From positions 1-46,559 of the forward strand of contig JAFRQN010000154.1 in the NCBI GenBank assembly GCA_017428585.1: a stretch of 46,559 nucleotides of DNA, read 5' to 3'. The stretch comes from Bacteroidota bacterium. GTDB lineage: Bacteria; Bacteroidota; Ignavibacteria; Kapaibacteriales; UBA2268. A model generated the notes under the pieces. It saw nothing but the letters and a program-made list of their open reading frames with translations, was not told the origin of the DNA and made no database searches. Shown one piece after another: positions 30,259-46,492 of the stretch. Position 1 is the stretch's first letter. Every line of letters begins with the position of its first letter. The position numbers and the translations under genes were made by a program.

Positions 30259-30494
30259 AAATACGTTTTATTTTTGATTTAAGAGCATTTTGTTATTTAT
30301 CTAATAAAATATATCAAAAAAGAATAAAAATTGAATGTATGCAAAATAAACAATAAATTTTTACGTTTTAGAATAATTGCAACAATAATAACAAAAATTT
30401 TTAATAAAATTAAAAAATAATTTTATTTTTAATTAAAAAATTGTTATTTTTGTATATAACTAATTAACAATTTTTATTAACTATACTAAAAAAT

Positions 30495-30517
30495 CCTGCC
30501 GCGTTTGGAGGGGTAGG
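30495..30517 (+). ncRNA. Conserved-loop hairpin HP1
   Basis: CCTGCC-GCGTTTGGAGG-GGTAGG. Confidence 0.6.
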
Positions 30518-30762
30518 CTGAATAAACATTTAATTTTAATAATCTGTTTTTTTTGATTTATATTTCATCAACATTGAATGCTTAGAATAAAATAGCTTAA
30601 ATTCTTTTTAGGTTATGAAAGTATTTTGAAGTAATATGAAAGATATTAGAAAAGACTAAGAGATGTTTATAAGGAAGATTTTTAATAACAATAGTAAATT
30701 AGTTGTGTGTGTGAAAATAGTCAGGCGCAGTGAGTATCTGCGCCTATTATTCCACAAAATAT

Positions 30763-30837
30763 CGCGGGGTGGTGTAATTGGTAAACACGCGAGGCTGTGT
30801 ACCTTGTTAGCTGGGAGTTCGAGTCTCCCCCCTGCTA
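30763..30837 (+). tRNA. tRNA-like gene 1, anticodon position GTG (His-like), atypical
   Basis: Hand-folded cloverleaf: D arm GTGT/ACAC with a GG loop, anticodon stem CGAGG/CCTTG with loop CTGTGTA, T arm GGAG-TTCGAGT-CTCCC. C1xT72 mismatch, T at position 37, no encoded CCA. Confidence 0.55.
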
Positions 30838-30873
30838 CGAATTTAATTAATGATTGTTTAATAAATATAAAAT

Positions 30874-30896
30874 CCTGCCGTGTGCGGAGGGGCAGG
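30874..30896 (+). ncRNA. Conserved-loop hairpin HP2
   Basis: CCTGCC-GTGTGCGGAGG-GGCAGG. Confidence 0.6.
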
Positions 30897-31038
30897 TGTA
30901 TTGAGTTATAATAACATTAATTATTTTTTTTAGACATAAATAATCAAATAATTCTTCAATTTAATATCATACTAATTTTAGTATGATATTTTTTTTATTC
31001 TGCAATAAGAATTATTTTGTAATTAATTAAAAAAGTAT

Positions 31039-31261
31039 TATTTTTGTATTGTCTTTAGACATTAGGTTTGATAGGTTTAATGTAACGACAACACAACATG
31101 ATAAGGAGAATGCTTAGGAGGGTCGGCGTTCTCCTTTATTTATTTATAACATAGCGGGGTGATGTAATTGGTAAACATAGCAGGGTGGTTGCTTGCTTAT
31201 TGTAGGTTCGAATCCTTCCTCCGCAACAAAAAATTTACTTTGTATTTTAATAAAAAAGAAT
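31039..31261 (+). ncRNA. Noncoding unit b carrying tRNA-like 2
   Basis: -7 box at 31039-31046, stem AAGGAGAA/TTCTCCTT at 31103-31136, then the tRNA-like gene. No hairpin terminator before the next promoter. Confidence 0.4.
31153..31226 (+). tRNA. tRNA-like gene 2, anticodon position GGT (Thr-like), atypical
   Basis: Same 5' half as gene 1 (GCGGGGTGnTGTAATTGGTAAACA). Anticodon stem GCAGG/CTTGC with loop GTGGTTG, T loop TTCGAAT. A1xA72 mismatch, one T-stem mismatch, T at position 37. Confidence 0.5.
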
Positions 31262-31425
31262 TAATTTTGTAGTATAATTAAATTATGTTTAACTAATTAA
31301 AATCGCGCCGTGTTTGGAGGGGCGCGTGGTTTGGTTTGACATACTATCTACCTATAAAAATTTATTATAAAATTAACTTTTTGTTTTAATTAAATATCAT
31401 ACTATTCCAGTATGATATTTTTTTA
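31262..31425 (+). ncRNA. Noncoding unit c with hairpin HP3
   Basis: -7 box at 31262-31269, GTTTAACTAATTAA box, HP3, and terminator at 31394-31425. Confidence 0.55.
31304..31326 (+). ncRNA. Conserved-loop hairpin HP3
   Basis: CGCGCC-GTGTTTGGAGG-GGCGCG. Confidence 0.6.
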
Positions 31426-31466
31426 TTATAGAATAAGAATTATTTTGTAATTAATTAAAAATGTAT

Positions 31467-31643
31467 TATTTTTGTATTACAATTAATTTAATATGTTTAA
31501 CTAACTAAATTCGTACCGTGTTTGGAGGGGTACGTGTGTTGGTGTTTGGATAAACATAACTACCTGTTAATATTATTTAGTTTTATTAAATTAGAATTTT
31601 CTTGAATTTCCTTAAGATGGATAAATAATTTATCCATCTTTTT
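31467..31643 (+). ncRNA. Noncoding unit d with hairpin HP4
   Basis: -7 box at 31467-31474, GTTTAACTAACTAA box, HP4, and terminator at 31615-31643. Confidence 0.55.
31512..31534 (+). ncRNA. Conserved-loop hairpin HP4
   Basis: CGTACC-GTGTTTGGAGG-GGTACG. Confidence 0.6.
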
Positions 31644-31797
31644 ATATTAGAATTCCCAAAACAAAAGGTGCAGGTGGTTGCTCTTCTGCATCTATAAAAT
31701 ATAATTTTTCATATTTATAATAAAATTAAATTATTAAAAATAGTATTAGACTTATTTTTATTCTTTAGCAATAGATTAAAATTCTATTGCTTTTTTT
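31644..31797 (+). ncRNA. Noncoding segment e with an anticodon-arm-like hairpin
   Basis: TGCAG-GTGGTTGCTCTT-CTGCA at ~31670-31691, and terminator AGCAATAGA/TCTATTGCT+T6 at 31767-31797. No canonical promoter seen. Confidence 0.3.
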
Positions 31798-31822
31798 ATT
31801 TTGTTATTGATTAAAAATATAT

Positions 31823-32023
31823 TATTTTTGTATATAAATTTTTTCGTAATTAACAATTTTTTTAACTATTAATTTCCTTGTAATAGGGACTTCTTACAGA
31901 AGAGTTATACGTAGAAAAAGAATATAACTAATGGTAGAATTAAAGTGTTAAAGAAAAATTTTGTAATGTAGTAAAAAAAAGAAAAAAGGGATGTTAGAGA
32001 GGTTTTATGCCTCTCTTTTTTTT
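31823..32023 (+). ncRNA. Noncoding unit f
   Basis: -7 box at 31823-31830 and terminator AGAGAGG/CCTCTCT+T7 at 31996-32023. Only ORFs of 6 codons or fewer. Confidence 0.45.
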
Positions 32024-32066
32024 CTAAAAATTTACAAAAAAATTTTATTTTTAATTAAAAAATTAT

Positions 32067-32478
32067 TATTTTTGTAATATATTTGATTTTCAAATTGACT
32101 GATTCATAAGAGGTGGTTGTTACAGCTCGCCGCCTCTTATACTGGCAATAATTATTATTTATTGTATAGATTATAACTTAAAAATTGCGTTCCTTTTTTA
32201 TTTAAGTTATCATTGTTTACAGCTCACTTTATGAAATTTTTTGGCTGGTTCATGTGTGAGTTAATGAAAAAGAAAAAGAGACAAGTTTTTTTTGTGTTTC
32301 CTCTTATTTAGCTTGTCTCTTATCTTTTAACTAAGACAGCAATATTTTTTTAATTCTTATATAATCTTTAAATAATTTTTTCATATACTTTTAACATTAT
32401 TTGTTTATAAAAATTTATTTTTTGATATACTTTTGATTTTTTCATGGATAACAGAACCTATTTAGGTTCTGTTTTTTT
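32067..32478 (+). ncRNA. Noncoding unit g (or micropeptide unit)
   Basis: -7 box at 32067-32074, 11-bp stem at 32106-32140, 10-bp stem at 32276-32321, terminator at 32451-32478. Contains a 26-codon ORF at 32231-32311. Confidence 0.4.
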
Positions 32479-32523
32479 ATGCAATAAGAATAAAAATTAT
32501 TTTGTTTTTAATTAAAATTTTTG

Positions 32524-32776
32524 TATTTTTGTATTACAATTAATTAACATTTTTTTTTACAAATAATTTTTTATATTTCTATTAAATCTATACATAAATA
32601 TATTTTAATATGTTATTTGATATCCTGCTTTATCTATTACTCAGTGCCAATTAAATAAGTTTATCATAATAGAAAAGCAAAAAATGTTATTAAATGTAGT
32701 TAATATATATAAAATCATCCAGAATAATAATGAGCAACAGAATTATTAAAAAAATTTAATAATTCTGTTTTTTTAT
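32524..32776 (+). ncRNA. Noncoding unit h
   Basis: -7 box at 32524-32531 and a 12-bp-stem terminator at 32736-32776. Only ORFs of 14-21 codons. Confidence 0.4.
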
Positions 32777-32791
32777 TTGCTCCAGAATTTA

Positions 32792-32901
32792 TATTTTTGT
32801 ACAATAATTAACTATTTATTCAAAATTTCAATAAAATGGTTTAATTTTTGATTCAGTATTATTTATATATCTTCAAGCAGGATGCCTCTCCTGCTTTTTT
32901 T
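32792..32901 (+). ncRNA. Noncoding unit i (~95 nt)
   Basis: -7 box at 32792-32799 and terminator AGCAGGA/TCCTGCT+T6 at 32876-32901. The only ATG opens a 2-codon ORF. Confidence 0.5.
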
Positions 32902-32935
32902 ATATAAAAAGTTTTGTTATTTGAAATAAAATTAT

Positions 32936-33094
32936 TATTTTTGTATATAATTATTTTTGTTTAACTAATTAAATAATAATTGCTTATCAATTTTATTTAT
33001 TTAACTCTCAAATTATATAAAGACTTAAACATAAATAATTGCAAGTGTTCGGCTAATTGGAAATTTAGGGAAGCAAAAACTTCCCTTTTTTTTT
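32936..33094 (+). ncRNA. Noncoding unit j (~140 nt)
   Basis: Tandem -7 boxes at 32936-32943 and 32952-32959, GTTTAACTAATTAA box, terminator GGGAAG/CTTCCC+T9 at 33068-33094. No ATG in the unit. Confidence 0.5.
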
Positions 33095-33114
33095 GATATT
33101 TATTAAAAATTTAT

Positions 33115-33193
33115 TATTTTTGTTTACAAGATATAGATTCATTGAAGTAAAAAGGAAAATTTGAAGCAATAATTTTATATTATTGCTTTTTTT
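33115..33193 (+). ncRNA. Noncoding unit k (~65 nt)
   Basis: -7 box at 33115-33122 and terminator AGCAATAAT/ATTATTGCT+T6 at 33165-33193. No ATG. Confidence 0.5.
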
Positions 33194-33218
33194 ATTTGTA
33201 AATAATCCAGGAAATATA

Positions 33219-33301
33219 TATTTTTGTACTGCCTTTATAAAAATATAAATTTTAATAGCTCTGATAAGATGGGACGGTATGCCTAACCGTCCCAATTTTT
33301 T
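33219..33301 (+). ncRNA. Noncoding unit l (~70 nt)
   Basis: -7 box at 33219-33226 and hairpin GGGACGG/CCGTCCC followed by AATTTTTT at 33271-33301. Confidence 0.45.
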
Positions 33302-33316
33302 AAAATTTTCGGCTTC

Positions 33317-33625
33317 CCAAGACCGAGACTGGTTCGCGGCACTCGTGGAAACCATCAGTCGTATGCATCCGATACGAGACTACTTAAAAGCGCCGGGTCT
33401 ATACCTTCTGCATTACACGTCTATACTCGATACTACTAAAAAACATCGAATTTTTTGGGTCTCCAAGACCGAGACCGGTTCGCGGCGAGCGCGGTTTCAT
33501 CCCCCTTCTCATCCGAGACTCGGTGTTACCCGAGACTTCTTAAAAGCGCGGTTCTTGACTTCCTGCAATACTAAGATTTACTGGATACTACTAAAAAGCA
33601 TCGAAAAAATGCCAAAAAATCCGAA
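33317..33625. repeat. GC-rich island A: two tandem ~150-bp repeat units plus a partial third
   Basis: CCAAGACCGAGACyGGTTCGCGGC at 33317 and 33463. GAGACTwCTTAAAAGC at 33376, 33532 and 33703. GATACTACTAAAAArCATCGAA at 33429 and 33584. Confidence 0.7.
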
Positions 33626-33640
33626 AAAATGGGTCAAAAA
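33604..33640. other. Four helically phased A-tracts (predicted intrinsic DNA bend)
   Basis: A6 at 33604, 33614 and 33624, and A5 at 33636, giving a 10-12 bp period. Confidence 0.6.
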
Positions 33641-33650
33641 TTGTGGTTGT

Positions 33651-33670
33651 CCCCCCCCCGCACCCCCCCC
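33651..33670. repeat. Paired homopolymers C9-GCA-C8
   Basis: CCCCCCCCCGCACCCCCCCC. Slippage-prone, with G-quadruplex / i-motif potential. Confidence 0.7.
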
Positions 33671-33785
33671 AAGTTTTTTCAAAAAAAGTCCCGCTGTTGC
33701 CCGAGACTTCTTAAAAGCAGTATTTCTATACTCTCTGCGAAACTATACTTAAAAATAAGACTTTGCTATACTTAAAGAATATACC

Positions 33786-33814
33786 AAAAAAAAAGCACGC
33801 TCAATGCGTGCTTT
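33786..33814 (-). terminator. Terminator of cysteine-ladder gene 3
   Basis: AAAGCACGC-tcaat-GCGTGCTTT with a T-run on the minus strand. Confidence 0.7.
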
Positions 33815-33830
33815 GACCAAAGAAAAAATA

Positions 33831-35142: not shown

Positions 35143-35400
35143 ATGAAACGCAAGAACAGATATTCAAAAGTTACAAACGCAATGATTCTCGAAGAGCTAA
35201 GGAAAATCCGCCAATGCCGCAACGCGGAGGAATACATCGCATTAAAAAAAGCGGAGCGAAGAGCAAGGCGGATTAAAATTGCGAAAAAGATATTTTTCGG
35301 AATTTTAAAAGCTCCGTTTGTCCTCGCCGAGCTCTATTTAGTTTTATTTGATTTTTCAGATTTGCGCAGCAGAGGCGGACGCCCAGAGAGGCGGTACTAA
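35143..35400 (+). CDS. Small basic protein with a C-terminal hydrophobic helix
   Basis: Internal ATG of track ORF 34939..35400. Peptide MKRKNRYSKV...IFFGILKAPFVLAELYLVLF. The 3' end runs into GC island C. Confidence 0.4.
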   Translation: MKRKNRYSKVTNAMILEELRKIRQCRNAEEYIALKKAERRARRIKIAKKIFFGILKAPFVLAELYLVLFDFSDLRSRGGRPERRY

Positions 35401-35590
35401 ACAGGAGCAGGAAGCAAGGGAGCAGGGACGGCGGGAGCCGCCAAGAGGAGCGGACGCCCAAAGGGGCGCCACCCAGCCACCCTTCTTACAAACCTAAAAA
35501 AAAGAGCAGGAAGAAAAAGGAGACAAGGCGTTCCGCCCAAAGAGACTAAAAAAAATAAAAAAAAATCTTGCATAATTCAAAAAAAAGTAT

Positions 35591-35598
35591 TATTTTTG
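35591..35598 (+). promoter_or_regulatory. -7 promoter box
   Basis: AAAAAAGTATTATTTTTGTAATACAAAAAT. Confidence 0.6.
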
Positions 35599-35652
35599 TA
35601 ATACAAAAATTAACAATAAATAAAAACAAAAACAAAAATAGGAATTAAAACA

Positions 35653-39108: not shown

Positions 39109-39606
39109 ATGAAAAATATTTTTCTCTTTTTGCTTCTTTCTCTATTCTTTAGCAATTCTTTAATTGCTCAATCTGATACTATACACAAAAATGATAAAGA
39201 AGCATATCATTTATTTTTTGTTCACAAAAAAACTTTGGACACTCTCGTTTCTAAATCTAAACATTTACAATTAACAGAAGAAAATTTTTTACTCCTCTGT
39301 GATTTGTTCAAAATACAACATCCTCGCTTTGTTTTAAAACAAGCTATTCTTGAAAGCGGAAATTTTAAGTCTAATGTCTTTAACAATACAAATAATTTAT
39401 TTGGTATGAAAAGACCTGGAGCAAGAAGAACGTATGCTCTCAAAAAAAAATATAAATTAAATTACGCTTGCTATGAAAGCTGGATACATTCACTCGCTGA
39501 TTATAAACTCTGGCAAGGCAACAAAACTATTACTGGAAATTATGCAGATTATCTCGAAAAACGAAGTTTTGCAGAAGCCAAAGATTACAAAGAGAAATTA
39601 AAATAA
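39109..39606 (+). CDS. Secreted glucosaminidase-domain peptidoglycan hydrolase
   Basis: Signal peptide MKNIFLFLLLSLFFSNSLIAQ. AILESGNFKSNVFNNTNNLFGMK matches the FlgJ-type glucosaminidase motif. Confidence 0.65.
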   Translation: MKNIFLFLLLSLFFSNSLIAQSDTIHKNDKEAYHLFFVHKKTLDTLVSKSKHLQLTEENFLLLCDLFKIQHPRFVLKQAILESGNFKSNVFNNTNNLFGMKRPGARRTYALKKKYKLNYACYESWIHSLADYKLWQGNKTITGNYADYLEKRSFAEAKDYKEKLK

Positions 39607-39610
39607 AAAA

Positions 39611-39636
39611 AGCACCTTTTATGGTGCTTTTCTTTT
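39611..39636. terminator. Bidirectional terminator
   Basis: AGCACC-ttttat-GGTGCT flanked by A7 and TTTCTTTT. Confidence 0.65.
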
Positions 39637-39691
39637 AACTTGTAGGGATTATTTTATCGGAAATAAATTAATGAAAGCTCTTACGCATTTA

Positions 39692-39699
39692 CAAAAATA
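39692..39699 (-). promoter_or_regulatory. -7 box on the minus strand facing the 39611 terminator
   Basis: Reverse complement reads CTTTATTTTTGTAAATG. Would give an ORF-less transcript of ~70 nt. Confidence 0.35.
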
Positions 39700-40028
39700 A
39701 AGACTTCCTGTAACTTTTCAAAATTTTAACTACAAAAGTTCGAAAGTATACATAAATCCCCTCATTCCATGCACTTTTTTTACGATGCGAGCCAATACGC
39801 CGCAAAGCGAACCCCTTTAACCTTCTTGTTTTGTTAGAGTTACGTTTTCGCTTTTTTTGACCGCTTTTTTCATTGAGGCGGGAGCGGGCGGGAGCGGACT
39901 GCTTTGGACAAGGAGCAGGACGCCCGCACGACTGCCGCCGATATGAGGGCGGGAACAAATTTAGTGCAGTTCACGAGAGCGGATGGGAAAGAAGCAAGTT
40001 GAAGGTAGTATCTGCACGCCGCCAGGAA

Positions 40029-40062
40029 GCAGGGTCATTGGGAAACCCAGCGACTAGCGGCG
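40029..40062 (+). repeat. 34-nt direct repeat, copy 1 (extended hairpin)
   Basis: GCAGGGTCATTGGGAAACCCAGCGACTAGCGGCG. Inner TGGG-aaa-CCCA and GGTC/GACC pairings, with outer CGCCGC/GCGGCG. Confidence 0.7.
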
Positions 40063-40149
40063 ATGCAGAGCTTGATGACAAAGGGTGGGGAACCAAAAAC
40101 ACAATACAAATAAAATAAAAAGATGTTTGTTTTTTTCGAAAAAAAGTAT

Positions 40150-40157
40150 TATTTTTG
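40150..40157 (+). promoter_or_regulatory. -7 promoter box preceded by a T7-CG-A7 palindrome
   Basis: TTTTTTTCGAAAAAAAGTATTATTTTTGTAATAT. Fires into GC-rich island B2. Confidence 0.6.
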
Positions 40158-40164
40158 TAATATA

Positions 40165-40849
40165 AAAATAAGCGACTGGGAGCGCGGCGCGGCGGCAGGC
40201 TTTTCCTCCAAGCCGAACGACACGACGACGCTCCCAGAAGCCAAAAAGCACGAGATTTTGTCCAATCCTTCCCTTCGATACTTTACACTCTCACAGGGTT
40301 GGAATACTTCGATACTAAGTCTCGGGCAACAGCGGGAAGCGGGGTGGGACAAGGTAAACTAAAGCGAGGCGGTCCCTGCACCGCCGAGCGGACTCCCTGT
40401 TCGTTTGGAAGTAAAATGTTTGGGAAATAGAGTAGGCGGGCTGCCGCACGCCTGCAAGAGTACGCATTCAGGGCAACGTGTTTATAAACGCATCGGTCTG
40501 ATGCGTTGCGTGTAGGCGGGCGAAGGGCACGCCTGCGAACAAAGGGGCGTCCTCTTGGGGGTGGGACTGAGAAACTTCAAGGCTTCGCCCCAGACGATGG
40601 CAATCGTCAAAGGACTTGCTTCAATCCGATACTTTTACAAAGCACTTGGATTTTGCACGATTCACACACTTAAGCGCAAGCAGGCGAGAAATTGAGTTAA
40701 TTCGATAGTTGATAGATAATTTGCCGTCCGCCGGGAGCAGGGTCATTGGGAAACCCAGCGACCAGCGGCGGCGGCTAAGCGAACGAGCGAAACGAATGTG
40801 GAGCGAGTGAGCGACAGCAATCATTTTTATTTTTTTACAGGATTTAATT
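40165..40849 (+). ncRNA. GC-rich structured RNA / ~680-nt leader upstream of the hsdMS operon
   Basis: No credible ORF. Stems: 40176-84/40229-37, 40368-85, 40432-55, 40488-506, 40512-36, 40544-49/40586-91, 40593-608, 40728-70. Confidence 0.45.
40737..40770 (+). repeat. 34-nt direct repeat, copy 2
   Basis: Identical to copy 1 except for one base (T to C). Outer stem here is CCGCCG/CGGCGG. Confidence 0.7.
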
Positions 40850-40999
40850 ATGAATAAGAAACAAAGTCATCTTAAAAAAAAGAAAAAGAAAAAAGAATTT
40901 GACAATAACAAAAGAGTTTTTATTGATGGAGCTTGGAAATTGTTAAATGATGAAATTAGGAATTACTTTGACAATGTAAACAAAAAGTGGAGGGATTAA
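40850..40999 (+). CDS. 49-aa lysine-rich small protein abutting hsdM
   Basis: Peptide MNKKQSHLKKKKKKKEFDNNKRVFIDGAWKLLNDEIRNYFDNVNKKWRD. Its stop is immediately followed by the hsdM ATG. Confidence 0.4.
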   Translation: MNKKQSHLKKKKKKKEFDNNKRVFIDGAWKLLNDEIRNYFDNVNKKWRD

Positions 41000-42475
41000 A
41001 TGGAAAGTCAAGATAATTTATTTGGAATTGAAGCGAATGAAGCACCTGTTCAAGTTAATACAGAGTTAGATTTAGAGCAGTCAATTACTAATCTTGCTAA
41101 AGAGTTTCAAGGAGTAGTTGATGATAATGATTTTAAGAATTGTTTTATAATAGTTTTATTTTATCGTTTTATTTCAGAGAATTACGATGATATAATAGAA
41201 AAAGAATGTTTATTTAATTATGTAAAAGAACAATTAAAACAAGATATCAATTTGAATGATTACTTAAAGTCTGTATTTAGTAAAGTAGAAAAAGCAAAAT
41301 ACAGCACAGAATGGTCTTCACAATTTGAAGGATTGTTTGATGATTTCAAAGGATTAGACAACAGACATATAAAATTATTGTTTGATTGTATAGCAAGGTT
41401 GGATATAAGCAACAAAGATCATACTGATTATTTTGGTTTTATCTTTGAATACTTTTTAATGTTTTATTCCAGTAACAGCAGGAAGTACAGCGGAGCTTTT
41501 TTTACTCCTGTTTGTGTTAGTAAATTATTGGCAAGGTTAGTACGCAGGGATTATTACGGTACAGAATTAGAAGACCCATATTTTAGAATATACGACCCTA
41601 CGTGTGGAAGTGGTACATTGTTATTATCAACATATAAAGAATTAAAAAGAGATGGATTTAATCTAAAAGTAAAAGGACAAGAGATTAATAAAACTTCATC
41701 ACGATTAGCAAGAATGAATATGATAATAAACAACATACAGATATATAATATAGGATGTGGTGATACTTTATTAAATCCATTGTATAAGAATGAGAGGTTT
41801 GATGCTATTGTAAGTAATCCGCCATATAGTATAAAGTGGGCTGGTTCAGATAATCCTGATTTAATAAAAGATGAACGTTATTCACCTGCTGGCGTATTAG
41901 CTCCAAAAGGCAAAGCAGATTATGCTTTTATTATGCATTCATTATATCATTTGAAAGAAAGCGGGAGTTATTATGGTGTTGTATTTCCTGGTGTATTGTA
42001 TAGAGATGGAGCAGAAGCAAAGATAAGAAAGTATTTGATTGATAATAATTTTGTAAAAGCAATAATACAATTACCATCAAATTTATTTTATGGCACACAG
42101 ATTTCAGTTTGTATAATGATATTATCAAAGAAGAAAGAAAGAGAAGGAGTAGTATTTATAGATGCAAGCAATGAATGTATAAAAGATGGCAAATTTAATA
42201 CATTGACAGATGAGAATATAAATAATATATGTTCTTGGGTTAATGTTATAGAAAGTTATAGAAGCCAATTTGTAACGAATGAAGAAATAGCAAAGAATAG
42301 ATATGCATTGACTGTAACTCAATATGTAGAACAGGAAGACAAGAAAGAAAAGATTGATATTGTTGCATTGAATAGAGAAATTAGAGAATTGCACGCAAGG
42401 AACGAAGCTAATTTTCAGAAGATGGAAGCGTGGGTAAGAGAAATGAATGAATTGTTAGGAATAGTAGATGAATAA
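41000..42475 (+). CDS. hsdM: Type I restriction-modification N6-adenine DNA methyltransferase subunit
   Basis: GAFFTP, DPTCGSGTLL (AdoMet motif I) and SNPPYS (motif IV). Confidence 0.85.
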   Translation: MESQDNLFGIEANEAPVQVNTELDLEQSITNLAKEFQGVVDDNDFKNCFIIVLFYRFISENYDDIIEKECLFNYVKEQLKQDINLNDYLKSVFSKVEKAKYSTEWSSQFEGLFDDFKGLDNRHIKLLFDCIARLDISNKDHTDYFGFIFEYFLMFYSSNSRKYSGAFFTPVCVSKLLARLVRRDYYGTELEDPYFRIYDPTCGSGTLLLSTYKELKRDGFNLKVKGQEINKTSSRLARMNMIINNIQIYNIGCGDTLLNPLYKNERFDAIVSNPPYSIKWAGSDNPDLIKDERYSPAGVLAPKGKADYAFIMHSLYHLKESGSYYGVVFPGVLYRDGAEAKIRKYLIDNNFVKAIIQLPSNLFYGTQISVCIMILSKKKEREGVVFIDASNECIKDGKFNTLTDENINNICSWVNVIESYRSQFVTNEEIAKNRYALTVTQYVEQEDKKEKIDIVALNREIRELHARNEANFQKMEAWVREMNELLGIVDE

Positions 42476-43049
42476 TAGATTAAAAGAGTTTATAGAATTA
42501 AAGAAACAAGGTTTTAATTATGGGTTATTGTGTGAATGCTGTAATATCTTAGACAACAAAAGAGAAAGAATAAGAAAAGCAGACCGTGAAGCTGGGATAT
42601 ATCCATATTATGGACCGAATGGAGTACAGGCTTACGTAAACAAATATACATTTGATGGAGAGTTTGTATTAGTTGCAGAGAAAGGCGTTGTAACAACAGA
42701 AGAAGGGCGTCCCATAGTAAACTGGGCAACAGGCAAGATTGGTTGTGGTGATAGTGTGCATATCATAAGCGAAAGGCAAGGCACATTATTAAGATTTTTA
42801 TATTATTATTTGCAATGTGTAGATATAAGAATGATAGTAACTACAGGAATGATACCATCATTAACAATTACAGCTTTTAGAAATATAAGAGTTCCAATTA
42901 TTCCCATAGAATATCAACAAGAAATAGTAAACGTTTTAGATATGGTTTATTATAGTTATAAAGATTTAGAAAAGGAATACAAATTGATAGACAAGTTATT
43001 AAAGCAGAATCTTACTTCAAAATTATTAAATTTTAAGGATTTGAAATAA
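42468..43049 (+). CDS. hsdS: Half-size type I specificity subunit (single target-recognition domain)
   Basis: 193 aa. IYPYYGPNGVQAYVNKYTFDGEFVLVAEKG is the typical HsdS TRD core. Overlaps hsdM by 8 nt. Confidence 0.75.
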   Translation: MNNRLKEFIELKKQGFNYGLLCECCNILDNKRERIRKADREAGIYPYYGPNGVQAYVNKYTFDGEFVLVAEKGVVTTEEGRPIVNWATGKIGCGDSVHIISERQGTLLRFLYYYLQCVDIRMIVTTGMIPSLTITAFRNIRVPIIPIEYQQEIVNVLDMVYYSYKDLEKEYKLIDKLLKQNLTSKLLNFKDLK

Positions 43050-43282
43050 TGTGGGATTTAAGCACAGCAGATTGCAAAGAGTGTAGTTTAGACAATATGA
43101 AAATGAGACATAAACTATGTAATAATTGTATATTAAAATATTATATAGAATATAGTGATTATTTAAGTTCAGATAGTTTTAATTATTATAAACATAAGAA
43201 AGGAAGATGTTATTTAATTAAAGCGGAGCGTGAACGAATAGAAAAAGAGTTAAAGAAATTAAAAAGGAAGAATAAAAATTAA
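43049..43282 (+). CDS. Small zinc-ribbon protein, paralog Z1
   Basis: CKEC...CNNCILKYY followed by a basic tail. Confidence 0.5.
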   Translation: MWDLSTADCKECSLDNMKMRHKLCNNCILKYYIEYSDYLSSDSFNYYKHKKGRCYLIKAERERIEKELKKLKRKNKN

Positions 43283-43324
43283 AGTTTTTTATAAAAAATG
43301 TTTGTTTATTTCAAAAGAAATTAT

Positions 43325-43332
43325 TATTTTTG
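43325..43332 (+). promoter_or_regulatory. -7 promoter box only 12 nt from an ATG (near-leaderless)
   Basis: ATGTTTGTTTATTTCAAAAGAAATTATTATTTTTGTAATACAGAATT-ATG. Confidence 0.55.
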
Positions 43333-43344
43333 TAATACAGAATT

Positions 43345-43524
43345 ATGCAAAACATAGAAGAATTAATAAGAATAATAAAAGATGTTAGGAAGCTGGATGA
43401 TCATTTAGGCAATCGGCTTTCGATGTATATATTAAATGAATTATATAATGAGATAAGTGAGTATAGTTCAAAGAAACGTGAAGTAATGGATAATATAATC
43501 TATTTTAGAAATCATAATAAATAA
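43345..43524 (+). CDS. 59-aa hypothetical protein
   Basis: Peptide MQNIEELIRIIKDVRKLDDHLGNRL... Just below the ORF-track cutoff. Confidence 0.45.
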   Translation: MQNIEELIRIIKDVRKLDDHLGNRLSMYILNELYNEISEYSSKKREVMDNIIYFRNHNK

Positions 43525-43539
43525 ATTAAGGGTTTAACA

Positions 43540-43770
43540 ATGATAACAATTAATGAAAGCAAAAAAGAATGTAGGTTTTGTGATTTAGAAGCTATGCTTA
43601 ACAAATCACCAGTAAGCTATAATGGCGATTACAGCAAATTAACGGAATGTGATAAATGTATATTACATTTTTCATTGGTAATGTTGAGAAGGCAGGCGGA
43701 GTTTTTGCCGTTTGAGTATGAGGAAGCGTTTAATTTTTACAAATATGCGAATAGGAAGGTTGAGCAATGA
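43540..43770 (+). CDS. Small zinc-ribbon protein, paralog Z2
   Basis: CRFC-x21-CDKCILHFSL. Confidence 0.55.
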   Translation: MITINESKKECRFCDLEAMLNKSPVSYNGDYSKLTECDKCILHFSLVMLRRQAEFLPFEYEEAFNFYKYANRKVEQ

Positions 43771-44147
43771 AATTGACATGCAAGCACTGCTCTAATGAGT
43801 TTGAAATAGAAGATAATCGAATAGACACGTACTATGACTTTGAATTAGATATAAACACAGATAATCCGAATTGGCGCTATAATGCAGAAATGAGTTCTGC
43901 CATAATGAACACATACAGAGGGTTATTTGAGCGTATAGGATTTAAGGTAAACAGCGTAAAGAATTTAGAGATTAGCAAAGGTTTATATTGTCCGAATTGT
44001 GAATACTTTTATACAAATAATGAATTAGTAAAGATATTAAGCGAACGTTGTATATTTTTGTTAGATGAGTTTATTTCTAAGTTAGATTTACATCAAAGAA
44101 TAAGAAAAGCTGCAATAGATTATTTTAAGGAGAAGCAGAATGTATGA
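43767..44147 (+). CDS. Zinc-ribbon protein
   Basis: CKHC...CPNC pairs, 126 aa. Confidence 0.55.
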   Translation: MKLTCKHCSNEFEIEDNRIDTYYDFELDINTDNPNWRYNAEMSSAIMNTYRGLFERIGFKVNSVKNLEISKGLYCPNCEYFYTNNELVKILSERCIFLLDEFISKLDLHQRIRKAAIDYFKEKQNV

Positions 44148-44295
44148 TTATGTAATAATATTTTTAATAACATTTTTATGTTGCTGTTGTTTTAGCTGTA
44201 TGAGCAGACTAAACGACATAAGAGAAGATATAGCACAAATAAAATATAATTTAATGTACCAAGACTATAAGGAGAATAAAGATGGGAAATCTTAA
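44140..44295 (+). CDS. 51-aa membrane micropeptide with a CCCC motif
   Basis: AAGGAG upstream. Peptide MYDYVIIFLITFLCCCCFSCMSRL... Confidence 0.4.
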   Translation: MYDYVIIFLITFLCCCCFSCMSRLNDIREDIAQIKYNLMYQDYKENKDGKS

Positions 44296-44545
44296 AATGA
44301 AAGTTGAAGCTTTATGTTTGTATGTCTTAAAGGATGAATTTTCAAAAAGATATATAAAACATATTTATGCAGGATATACATTAACAACAGATAGTGTATT
44401 TGAAGCTAAATTATATAGCACATGGGATGAAGCTGAGGATTATCTAAGCAAGCCATATACTATAAAAAAAGTATATTTTGATTTATTAGGCAATATGGTT
44501 GGTCATGATGTAAACGTATTAGAAAGTGATTTGAAAGAGGATTAA
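44282..44545 (+). CDS. Hypothetical protein
   Basis: 87-aa ORF with AAGGAG 8 nt upstream. Confidence 0.5.
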   Translation: MGNLKMKVEALCLYVLKDEFSKRYIKHIYAGYTLTTDSVFEAKLYSTWDEAEDYLSKPYTIKKVYFDLLGNMVGHDVNVLESDLKED

Positions 44546-44546
44546 T

Positions 44547-44768
44547 ATGGTTGAAGATTGTAAACATTGTAATATTTATAGAGTCCGAGATTATATTGAA
44601 AATCATCGTAAGGAATTTGATTTAAATTCAGAATGTGGGCAGTGTATAGCATCATTTAGTTTACGTCTTTTATTAGATAAGTGTGAATATTATGATCCAC
44701 GAAGTAAAAAATATTTTGACCAAATAGAAAAAGATTTTGAAGCATATAAGAATAAAGATGATGAATAA
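44547..44768 (+). CDS. Small zinc-ribbon protein, paralog Z3
   Basis: CKHC-x21-CGQCIASFSL. Confidence 0.55.
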   Translation: MVEDCKHCNIYRVRDYIENHRKEFDLNSECGQCIASFSLRLLLDKCEYYDPRSKKYFDQIEKDFEAYKNKDDE

Positions 44769-44976
44769 ATGTCAAGAATGTAAAGTTACATTTGAAGATT
44801 ATAATGAGTTAAAAAAAAACTTTTCATTAACAGACTGCTATATGTGTAAATTAGCATTTTTTACGTGTTATCCTTTTAATTTAGCAGTTTCACGTTATAA
44901 AGAAGAATATAAATTAGAAGTATTAAATAAAATTTTTACAGTATATAAGAAAGTTAAAGGGAGAATTAAAGAATGA
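44758..44976 (+). CDS. Small zinc-ribbon protein, paralog Z4
   Basis: Likely start is MMNKCQEC (track start 44737). CQEC-x19-CYMCKLAFF. Confidence 0.5.
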   Translation: MMNKCQECKVTFEDYNELKKNFSLTDCYMCKLAFFTCYPFNLAVSRYKEEYKLEVLNKIFTVYKKVKGRIKE

Positions 44977-45467
44977 GAACAAAAGTTTTCAATAATTTAG
45001 AGGATTATAAGACATACGTCAAATTAAATCCAGGTACTCTTATAAATGGAGTAACACAAGAATTTTTAGATGATTTTTATGAGTCATCATTAGAGGATTG
45101 CAATTCTGACAATGCAACAAATGAATTATGTTTTAATTGTTATAATTGCAAAGAATGCCATAGATGTATGGAGATGTGGTGTTCTAAATGTTGCAATAAT
45201 TGTTCAGAGTGTACAAATTGTAAAAATTGCAATGACTGCTATGATTGCAGTGAATGCATAGGCTGTTCGTATTGCTGTGAATGTGTAAAGTGTGAGAATT
45301 GCAGCAAATCATTTGAATGTGAGAGTTGTTATTTATGTAAAGGAATTTCAAACTCAAGCAATAGAGCATTTATTAAACATATAGTATTAGATAAAGATGT
45401 AATAGTATTTAATAGTTTATTTAATTTTGTAGAAAATTATAAATGCTATTTATCTGATGTTTTATGA
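44973..45467 (+). CDS. Cysteine-ladder (C-x2-C)n repeat protein, paralog 5
   Basis: 164 aa. Motif INGVTQEFL, then 26 Cys. GGGAG upstream. ATGA overlaps with both neighbouring genes. Confidence 0.8.
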   Translation: MRTKVFNNLEDYKTYVKLNPGTLINGVTQEFLDDFYESSLEDCNSDNATNELCFNCYNCKECHRCMEMWCSKCCNNCSECTNCKNCNDCYDCSECIGCSYCCECVKCENCSKSFECESCYLCKGISNSSNRAFIKHIVLDKDVIVFNSLFNFVENYKCYLSDVL

Positions 45468-46492
45468 TAGAATTAAATAAAGAATATAAAGACAAGCTAA
45501 AAGGAATTAAATTTATAGATTTATTTTGTGGGTTGGGAGGTTTTAGATTAGCTTTAGAATCATTTGGTGCAGAATGTGTATTTAGTTCAGACATAGACAA
45601 GAACGTAAGCAAAACATACTTTGATAATTTTAATGATAATTGTTTGAATGATATAACAAAGACGGAGGCGGTAGAAATACCGTCTCATAATATTTTGTGT
45701 GGTGGGTTCCCTTGTCAAGCATTTAGTATAGGTGGATACAAGAAAGGTTTTGATGATGAGCGTGGAGTTCTATTTTTGGATATAATAAGAATAGCAAAAT
45801 ACCATCTGCCAGAATTATTGTTTTTAGAAAATGTAAAAGGATTAGTTGAGCATGACGAAGGAAAGACATTTAAAATAATTGTTGATTGTTTAGAAGATTT
45901 AGGATATAATGTTTATACAAAGGTTCTAAACAGCAAGTATTTTGACGTTCCGCAGTCAAGAGAACGTATTTATTTTATATGTATAAGACAAGATATAGAC
46001 AATAAGACTTTTGAATTTCCAAAAGAAACAAAGATTAATAAAACAATAAAAGACATATTGCTTTCTTCTGATGAGATAAAAGAGAATTTGTTTATAGATA
46101 GAGAACGGTGTCATTTGAATCATAAATATACAAATAACAATTTATTTGATACAGAAGAAAAAAGGCTGTTGGTTGCTGGATACAATGGGATTAAAGACCA
46201 TAACAACAACAGGATATATTACGCTGACGGTTTATTTTGTACCTATACAAAAAGCACAGGTTCAACAAATAACGGTGGTGGGATTGTATTAAACAACAAA
46301 GTAAGACGTTTGCAAAAGAGGGAAGTGATGCGTTTGTTTGGCTTTCCTGATAGTTACAAGATTGATTATTCACATTATAAGATATGCCAACAAGCTGGGA
46401 ACAGCGTTGTAGTAAATGTAATACAAAGTATAATAAAGAATTTGATTGATACAAAGGCAATAAAAAGCTATCATAAATTTAATATAAAATGA
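45464..46492 (+). CDS. dcm: DNA (cytosine-5) methyltransferase
   Basis: FCGLGGF (motif I), GGFPCQAFS (IV), ENVKGL (VI), QSRERIYF (VIII), GNSVVVNV (X). Confidence 0.9.
   Translation: MIELNKEYKDKLKGIKFIDLFCGLGGFRLALESFGAECVFSSDIDKNVSKTYFDNFNDNCLNDITKTEAVEIPSHNILCGGFPCQAFSIGGYKKGFDDERGVLFLDIIRIAKYHLPELLFLENVKGLVEHDEGKTFKIIVDCLEDLGYNVYTKVLNSKYFDVPQSRERIYFICIRQDIDNKTFEFPKETKINKTIKDILLSSDEIKENLFIDRERCHLNHKYTNNNLFDTEEKRLLVAGYNGIKDHNNNRIYYADGLFCTYTKSTGSTNNGGGIVLNNKVRRLQKREVMRLFGFPDSYKIDYSHYKICQQAGNSVVVNVIQSIIKNLIDTKAIKSYHKFNIK

Follow-up and report, generated by a model that had tools for sequence, protein, structure and literature searches.

The locus considered here raises a simple question: why should a strong phage promoter be separated from the genes that it faces by several hundred nucleotides (nt) of GC-rich DNA that contain no open frame? 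The promoter lies at 40126-40157 within a stretch of 46,559 nt (contig JAFRQN010000154.1 of assembly GCA_017428585.1, listed as Bacteroidota bacterium), referred to below as the window. At about 46.6 kb, the window amounts to essentially a whole phage genome, and its gene content is shared by independent assemblies of 46,608-46,924 nt. Between the promoter and an operon composed of a 49-amino acid (aa) open reading frame (ORF49), hsdM, and hsdS are 688 nt of non-coding sequence (40162-40849). The reading that we favor, with a probability of about one half, is that this segment would be a long, modular, structured, untranslated 5' leader of ORF49-hsdM-hsdS, accompanied by a conserved upstream unit with which it shares one hairpin. 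The initial annotation of this DNA had left the choice between a large autonomous RNA and a regulatory leader of the methyltransferase. The second alternative now appears better supported, since the promoter is the sole consensus promoter upstream of the operon and no terminator is predicted before hsdM.

Promoter, proposed leader, and methylase operon

The promoters of this phage are of the Bacteroidota type, and exact matches to TTTG-N17-21-TAnnTTTG are found 27 times in the window. One of these is the leader promoter (+ strand, TTTG-N20-TATTTTTG, which conforms to TAnnTTTG). In the Bacteroidota -33/-7 promoter consensus, the G of the -7 box lies at position -5 (PMC6847099); the start of the leader is predicted near 40162. 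A strong consensus promoter had initially been placed at 40130-40157, and this is borne out, as the site extends to the full -33/-7 consensus. It is a member of repeat families D2, D3, and D6, its core is retained in the L019 lineage, and its 17-mer GTATTATTTTTGTAATA has 22 near-matches in the window, compared with 2.9 expected by chance. The T7-CG-A7 palindrome that had been counted as part of the promoter is instead a spacer common to promoter subfamily D6, which is not kept in relatives. (It should be noted that the window equivalent of 40133-40170 is riddled with changes to T or A in contig L005 and has a 19-nt deletion and a run of N in contig L008. These contigs are otherwise 100% identical, and the changes are most likely artefacts that arose when low-complexity sequence was assembled or scaffolded. 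A number of short contigs also have their ends within this region or close to it, at window equivalents of about 40143, 40170, 40269, and 40361.)

The leader is 52% GC versus 29% for the genome as a whole, with values of 50-63% over 40165-40830. By comparison, ten other promoter-to-ORF distances in this phage are 5-127 nt long and 7-29% GC, and the mean leader of Flavobacterium johnsoniae is 33 nt (PMC6847099). The earlier description of a GC-rich, ORF-less stretch of ~680 nt thus holds for both composition and lack of an open frame, and the sequences quoted in it are all present where it placed them. It is also correct that the GC-rich sequence continues to about 40830, but the block does not start after the promoter; rather, it begins at ~39780, 350 nt upstream. 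No open frame is present in the leader on either strand, even when TAG or TGA is read as a sense codon. Over 39640-40849 every frame has 11-21 stop codons, and six-frame translations of the region give no significant Pfam match.

Downstream of the promoter, no terminator-like site is seen between 40165 and 41200, and no consensus promoter between 40157 and 43301, where the next one is located; RNA initiated at the leader promoter should therefore enter ORF49-hsdM-hsdS. The leader occupies the interval between promoter and ORF49, on the same strand, with neither a terminator nor a promoter intervening. Its last part (40781-40849, + strand, diversity 0.03) is a tail rich in purines that contains GAGCGA repeats and gives way to a U-rich run just before the ORF49 start. 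The region had been said to end in a T-rich stretch; this U-rich run is indeed there, but nothing terminator-like accompanies it. The operon (40850-43049, + strand) consists of ORF49 (40850-40999), hsdM (41000-42475), and hsdS (42468-43049). Pfam identifies the latter two (N6_Mtase and Methylase_S) and, as had been proposed, they form an orphan pair: no match to a restriction subunit (hsdR) was found in the ORF list or in the family scans run.

Conserved modules within and upstream of the proposed leader

Among the sequences retrieved by exact-protein look-ups and one pattern scan, seven lineages of one phage species group could be told apart (the window type, L019-22, L023/24, which is partial, L025, L035, L036, L037, and L038). 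These are 90-96% identical over the region, and in the nine lineages or strain groups recovered the leader is always ahead of ORF49-hsdM. Nucleotide diversity was taken over six lineages, with the third codon positions of flanking genes (0.10-0.12) as the reference. On this scale the whole leader (40166-40830) has a value of 0.057. The segment at 40426-40546 stands at 0.021 and the adjoining segment at 40547-40715 at 0.085.

The slowly changing segment corresponds to a core (40428-40546, + strand) in which two GUAGGCG-N10/11-CGCCUGC hairpins flank an ACGCAUC/GAUGCGU stem. This arrangement had been drawn from the sequence initially, and comparison with L019 reveals only 2 differences in it, both of them in loops. 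Folding stability relative to dinucleotide shuffles, the basis of all local hairpin z-scores given here, is high on the + strand (z = -4.9 for 40425-40545) and lower on the - strand (z = -3.6). The segment at 40540-40612 has z = -2.9, and the whole 681 nt has z = -2.8 on the + strand and -1.5 on the - strand. The expectation of many local stems is thus upheld, as sub-regions are more stable than shuffled sequence with z from -2.9 to -4.9.

Of the GC-rich non-coding sequence, the part that is best conserved lies outside the leader. This block, unit A (39868-40100, + strand), differs from L019 at 7 of 226 nt (39872-40097), whereas third codon positions differ by 10-17%. It holds a hairpin, A1 (39877-39940), with z = -6.5 on the + strand and -3.8 on the - strand, in which U.G pairs have become U-A in two lineages. 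For A1 and the core, G.U pairs and z-scores alike favor the + strand, and the substitution rates indicate that the core and unit A are under purifying selection. An 81-aa ORF over unit A was rejected as a gene, given a 1-nt insertion in L023 and substitutions that have no third-position bias.

The best-supported structure of the region is a hairpin of ~65 nt, here called module X, for which the alignments make a solid case as a structured RNA motif kept by compensatory change. Copy A (40008-40075) lies in unit A and copy B (40716-40780, diversity 0.056) near the end of the leader, both on the + strand. A 38-nt direct repeat (40025-40062 and 40733-40770) constitutes the core of the module, and homology between the copies extends over 68 nt. 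In copy A, an apical stem, GC-A-GGGU / ACCC-A-GC, closes a 9-nt loop; the basal stems of the two copies differ in sequence, and both pair. A covariance model scores copy A at 92.5 bits and copy B at 80.6 bits. In a search of the window and unrelated loci it detects exactly two copies per clade genome and none elsewhere, with copy B absent in L038. The sample available for covariation was small, comprising only 12 related sequences, in which 96 of 96 stem cells are standard pairs (100% paired). Within it there are three compensatory double substitutions, which are independent events and affect two pairs and 4 cells. In copy A, U40035-A40045 is replaced by C-G in L035 and L036; in copy B of L037, G40742-C40754 is replaced by A-U and U40743-A40753 by C-G. 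The covariation score of 0.144, versus 0.072 in shuffles, was reached by 0 of 500 shuffles, and controls in which the alignment was slid collapse. Separately, the 38-nt repeat was considered as the template/variable repeat of a diversity-generating retroelement. This was rejected, as its two differences are not A-specific on one strand and the scanned proteins include no reverse-transcriptase match.

At the opposite end of the leader is H1 (40172-40241, + strand), a long hairpin that starts about 10 nt from the predicted 5' end (z = -3.6 for 40170-40245). It is retained with remodelling in six lineages, which includes an A-U to G-C change and a longer apical stem in L019 and L025. Thus the hairpin implied by the initially proposed CTGGGAGCG/CGCTCCCAG stem (40176-84 / 40229-37) is present, but the outer stem itself is remodelled in relatives and not kept. 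Two other stems fared less well: GGGGCG/CGCCCC is broken in relatives, and GACGAT/ATCGTC has two pairs compensated but two broken. When homologues are compared, as the initial annotation had suggested, covariation is found in module X but there is no net covariation for a fold of the whole leader. The leader is most likely modular, with a few conserved hairpins rather than one large ornate fold.

A further element, block Y (40317-40337, + strand), consists of 21 nt perfectly complementary to 33689-33709 (+ strand), which belongs to a second non-coding island of high GC content (33246-33790) that follows a promoter at 33195-33226. Outside AT-rich promoter sequence, the genome contains no inverted exact match longer than this one; the second-longest is 14 nt, and the local alignment score of block Y is 42 versus a shuffle maximum of 28. 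Both block Y and its partner are downstream of + strand consensus promoters; in the case of the partner, a terminator-like hairpin (33270-33302, GGGACGG-N9-CCGTCCC-AATTTTTT) follows the promoter almost directly. In L019, the change G40334A in block Y is matched by C33692T in the partner, whereas the change of TCT to GGA at 40320-22 is unmatched, which leaves three uncompensated positions and 14 paired bases. L035 retains a 20-nt complement to block Y despite a rearrangement of the island in which its A-rich and poly-C parts were lost. RNAduplex calculations on full-length RNAs were uninformative. These data would fit RNA-RNA pairing and inverted DNA copies homogenised by gene conversion equally well. 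A transposon or invertible segment was rejected as the source of the inverted pair: a target duplication is not seen, and all contigs have one orientation. The neighbouring ORFs of 181 and 184 aa have no recombinase domain on record.

Beyond its terminator-like hairpin, the 33-kb island contains ~150-nt tandem repeats, A-rich short repeats, a poly-C tract (33651-33670), and the block Y partner, and it is closed by a bidirectional terminator (33787-33815). It varies by lineage, with 288 nt deleted in L019 in addition to the loss in L035. Gene callers annotate a 157-aa ORF at 33279-33752, which is probably spurious.

In the leader reading, host sigma-A RNA polymerase would transcribe the operon from a canonical Bacteroidota promoter, and the modules would act in cis on the methylase mRNA. 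H1 may be a 5'-terminal clamp that protects the 5' end, while the core and module X may be bound by a factor, of phage or host origin, that governs read-through, stability, or translation. Block Y may be a single-stranded recognition segment that pairs with RNA from the 33.2-33.8 kb island. A more elaborate proposal, which we consider quite unlikely, is an RNA control circuit that times or limits the methyltransferase. In such a circuit module X would be a new class of cis-acting hairpin (antitermination-like or protein-binding) and block Y would form a co-evolving duplex of 14-21 nt with an RNA from the 33.2-33.8 kb island. If true, the circuit would mean that a Bacteroidota phage regulates genes through a network of RNA-RNA contacts; to our knowledge, Bacteroidota hosts have no Hfq or ProQ-type chaperones.

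Several observations weigh against a functional leader of this kind. Its transcript is predicted from sequence alone, and unit A, which is upstream of the promoter, is unexplained by a pure leader model. The H1 region (40166-40250) has a diversity of 0.10, the neutral rate. In a consensus fold of the whole leader from 3 lineages, 4 of the 200 pairs are compensated and about 20 are broken (covariation term +2.68), and in a random-mutant control the observed substitutions preserve the minimum free energy weakly (z = -1.5 in both directions). H1 and the 3' third are dispensable, at least in L038, because this lineage has lost both by clean deletions (40177-40233, and 206 nt at 40606-40811 that include module X) and has kept ORF49-hsdM. 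The co-variation in block Y is a single event that gene conversion could equally have produced. Finally, no leader of this type precedes the HsdM homologues (31-45% identity) found outside the clade, and a synteny check of glucosaminidase homologues (48-69% identity) found no island, even in the 69% relative; the leader appears not to be an ancient partner of the methylase, and their linkage is probably recent. (The 3' deletion in L038 lies between short direct repeats, G-R-CAATC, and suggests slippage or microhomology-mediated loss.)

Alternative explanations and comparable systems

Among the other explanations, the one that survives best, although we regard it as doubtful, is that the two units of the region, A and B, are autonomous stable non-coding RNAs. 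They would be processed or separately terminated, with their proximity to hsdM being incidental, and would work in trans, perhaps as decoys or sponges for a host or phage RNA-binding protein or defense factor, or as antisense to the 33.2-33.8 kb island. Such RNAs would accommodate the position of unit A, the most conserved block and yet outside the leader, as well as the presence of module X in two copies with conserved loop-proximal sequence, the complementarity of block Y to another non-coding island, and a composition that is extreme for an mRNA leader. Small promoter-driven non-coding units are, moreover, common in this phage at 30.4-33.2 kb. However, neither unit has a terminator-like 3' end, large natural deletions are tolerated, and no full-consensus promoter for unit A was found in a scan of the window. 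Sequence and alignment together do offer a weak candidate at 39830-39859 (+ strand, TTTG-N18-TTTTTTTG, which reads CATTTTTG in L019 and L025), with the conserved block beginning at 39872, shortly past the start that this candidate would predict.

Known RNA families also speak against autonomous RNAs. A cmscan of the whole window against Rfam at gathering thresholds returned only two tRNAs. A scan of 39600-40900 at E <= 10 gave only terminator-driven and chance matches, with ROOL, GOLLD, HEARO, raiA, and OLE absent, so that the families raised by the initial annotation (ROOL, GOLLD, HEARO, and raiA) find no counterpart here. Neither Rfam nor ARAGORN matched group I or II introns, ribozymes, tmRNA, or tRNA-like elements in 39600-40900, and no IscB/TnpB-like partner was seen among ORFs of at least 90 aa or in the family scans run. 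In common with ROOL, GOLLD, HEARO, omega RNA, raiA, and OLE, the region spans several hundred nt, is GC-rich relative to its genome, lacks ORFs, and resides in a phage that carries tRNA genes. Unlike ROOL, GOLLD, HEARO, raiA, and OLE, it has no covariance-model match and no supported multi-helix architecture, its modules are deletable, and it is confined to one narrow clade. Given these differences, the lack of net covariation, and the L038 deletions, the idea of a large autonomous ornate RNA is not supported.

We hold it improbable that the block is mostly non-functional, that is, captured or expanding GC-rich DNA (a foreign fragment, a mobile remnant, or a decayed gene) whose conservation reflects youth and internal duplication. 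Its distribution and composition would suit this view, since the block is found in one species-level clade only and is foreign in composition to the genome. Megablast and blastn searches of GenBank phages gave no match to the region. Exact or degenerate patterns taken from the module X core, from the repeated hairpin, and from block Y were scanned for in IMG/VR, JGI metagenomes, and GTDB genomes and yielded one true relative, L025; the few other pattern matches, in 185,579 species genomes and IMG/VR, are unrelated high-GC records and look like chance. HsdM homologues in IMG/VR (31-42% identity) have no GC island upstream. The element is, by this survey, young and narrow, confined to one species-level phage clade, because more distant relatives are without the island. 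The neutral rates of H1 and of 40547-40715, the large deletions and copy-number changes in the region and in the sister island, and the internal duplication of modules would likewise be expected of DNA with little function. On the other side, unit A and the core change 2-5 times more slowly than third codon positions, and module X has undergone compensatory changes. No protein or transposon remnant was detected, no source sequence was found in the 185,579 species genomes or IMG/VR, and the flanks of the 21-nt inverted pair, as read, contain no target-site duplication.

There is a slimmer prospect that the block acts as DNA, whether as operators for the divergent promoters at 39722 (- strand) and 40126 (+ strand), between which unit A lies, or as a pac site, replication origin, or partition site. 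It would then be a cluster of protein-binding sites, with the repeats being bound as DNA and not forming RNA stems. The inverted repeats fold about equally on both strands, and module X is in fact more stable on the - strand (z = -6.4 and -4.05 for copies A and B) than on the + strand (z = -4.05 and -3.1). In addition, block Y with its inverted copy and the GTAGGCG-N10/11-CGCCTGC copies 80 bp apart resemble repeated palindromic sites, and parallel change in both copies of block Y would be expected from gene conversion or from co-evolution with a binding protein. However, covariation in module X keeps pairing rather than sequence across copies and lineages, which is unusual for a protein-binding DNA motif. 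Several of the supported stems contain G.U pairs, which are A.C mismatches on the other strand and which have been replaced by U-A or G-C. The breakpoints of whole-genome contigs vary, so that there are no fixed ends here, GC-skew extremes lie elsewhere, and no candidate binding protein was identified. The related idea of a cos site or fixed end was rejected, as the breakpoints of full-length phage contigs differ between assemblies. (Two minor candidates were likewise set aside. Enrichment of Chi-like AGCGG and G-quadruplex motifs is explained by the purine-rich composition and is not conserved in L019, and the 3 YCGATACT repeats in the leader are not significant after allowing for all possible 7-mers.) Last, relatives gave no support for a decaying protein-coding gene with a conserved frame, as there is neither an open frame nor a Pfam remnant, 1- or 2-nt indels are scattered among lineages across the leader, and the substitutions lack third-position bias.

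If the segment is a leader, known phage systems offer some precedent for how it might work. The boxB hairpins of lambda nutL and nutR, and the putL and putR sites of HK022, are cis-acting antitermination or regulatory hairpins in phage early leaders. Like these, module X is a hairpin module (~65 nt) of which each genome has two copies, oriented alike, with stems kept by compensatory change, and at least one copy is placed in an untranslated leader, between an early-type promoter and the genes presumed to be its targets. Unlike these, it has no sequence or Rfam similarity to them, its host is of the Bacteroidota type, and copy A lies upstream of the strong promoter rather than in a second operon leader. 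There is, further, no downstream terminator found for it to override and no N-like protein identified, and the function suggested for module X is by analogy. The CI RNA of P4 (seqA/seqC) and the c4 RNA of P1 and P7 (Rfam C4) exemplify control by antisense RNA embedded in a leader. These too involve a long untranslated leader with internally repeated and complementary segments, a short segment complementary to sequence elsewhere in the phage genome, and pairing segments that can co-evolve. In the present case, by contrast, there is no Rfam C4 match, the partner is 6.6 kb away in a separate transcription unit, one position co-varies, and the controlled operon would be a methyltransferase rather than immunity or replication genes. 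H1 can be compared with the stabiliser hairpins of the ompA 5' untranslated region and the T4 gene 32 leader, as it is near the 5' end, long, and stable, and its shape rather than its sequence is kept. It differs in being unusually long (about 70 nt) and deleted in one lineage, and a stabilising role would be by analogy. The leader is not a member of any described family, and would work most like the nut/put elements or the P4/P1 leader antisense elements.

Phages of Bacteroidota abound in gut ecosystems, and how they regulate their genes has hardly been explored. A leader about 20 times the usual length in the phylum, placed ahead of an anti-restriction methylase, would, if real, provide a tractable example of post-transcriptional control of a counter-defense gene, with module X and block Y as mutable targets. 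If it is junk, the block documents how DNA of foreign composition can settle between a promoter and its genes and diversify there. In either case, the practical reach is limited by the very narrow distribution.

Neighbouring features of the phage genome

The left boundary of the non-coding region is formed by a bidirectional intrinsic terminator (39605-39634, a hairpin with a T-run on both strands) at the end of a glucosaminidase gene, which was assigned by Pfam (PF01832). Facing this terminator is a full-consensus promoter (39692-39722, - strand, TTTG-N19-TATTTTTG), and together the two predict a candidate intergenic transcript of ~85 nt on the - strand. The region from which it would be made is conserved in relatives, with 3 differences versus L019.

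A dense promoter array is found at 30400-33230, where at least 8 full-consensus promoters have just 100-450 nt behind each of them and, in many cases, a terminator. The array includes tRNA-His (30763) and tRNA-Thr (31153), besides which Rfam recognised nothing in it. The GC-rich motif AAAATCCTGCCGYGTTTGGAGGGGYAGG occurs in it 4 times (30487, 30866, 31296, and 31504) at varying distances from the nearest promoter. To judge by this layout, the array resembles a group of clustered small RNA genes or mini-transcripts. A third patch of non-coding DNA rich in purines and GC (35400-35560), between a small gene and a promoter at about 35549-35610, contains the motifs GGAGCAGG and GGAGCGGACGCCC, which resemble unit A. 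Its evolution is roughly neutral (0.88 identity to L019).

Pfam and family scans of the encoded proteins identify a large terminase, a portal, a head protease, a major head protein, and a tape measure protein of 1909 aa, a structural set by which the phage is classed as tailed and siphovirus-like. The tape measure protein is one of two ORFs of more than 900 aa; the other (964 aa) has no significant Pfam match. The samples bear the ENA and Logan metagenome labels XIEF21-1 and WILK20-1, which, going by the labels themselves, probably denote ruminant gut surveys.

Within the operon, ORF49 is under purifying selection, with diversities of 0, 0.03, and 0.12 at codon positions 1, 2, and 3. As had been observed initially, it is rich in lysine, encoded by a run of AAA/AAG codons, and its stop codon abuts hsdM. 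The TAA adjoins the ATG at 41000, an arrangement that suggests translational coupling. In two lineages the ORF called at this place is longer, at 66 aa (L022 5917-6117) and 83 aa (L037 1899-2150). The orphan type I methyltransferase presumably protects phage DNA from restriction. The closest HsdM outside the clade has 45% identity, and because the nearest homologues with a named source are from Firmicutes (Megasphaera and Massilimicrobiota), yet the promoters are of the Bacteroidota type, horizontal acquisition of the methylase is suggested. One contig of the WILK20 lineage has a truncated hsdM (285 aa, L020 13879-14736), and in the same lineage only a 53-aa ORF is called at the place of hsdS (L019 14851-15012); on these gene calls the methylase cassette is itself decaying in some strains. 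Beyond hsdS, the interval at 43049-45467 is occupied by small ORFs rich in CxxC pairs (e.g., 43540-43770, 43767-44147, 44547-44768, and 44973-45467), which extend to a gene for a Dcm-type C5 methylase (45464-46492).

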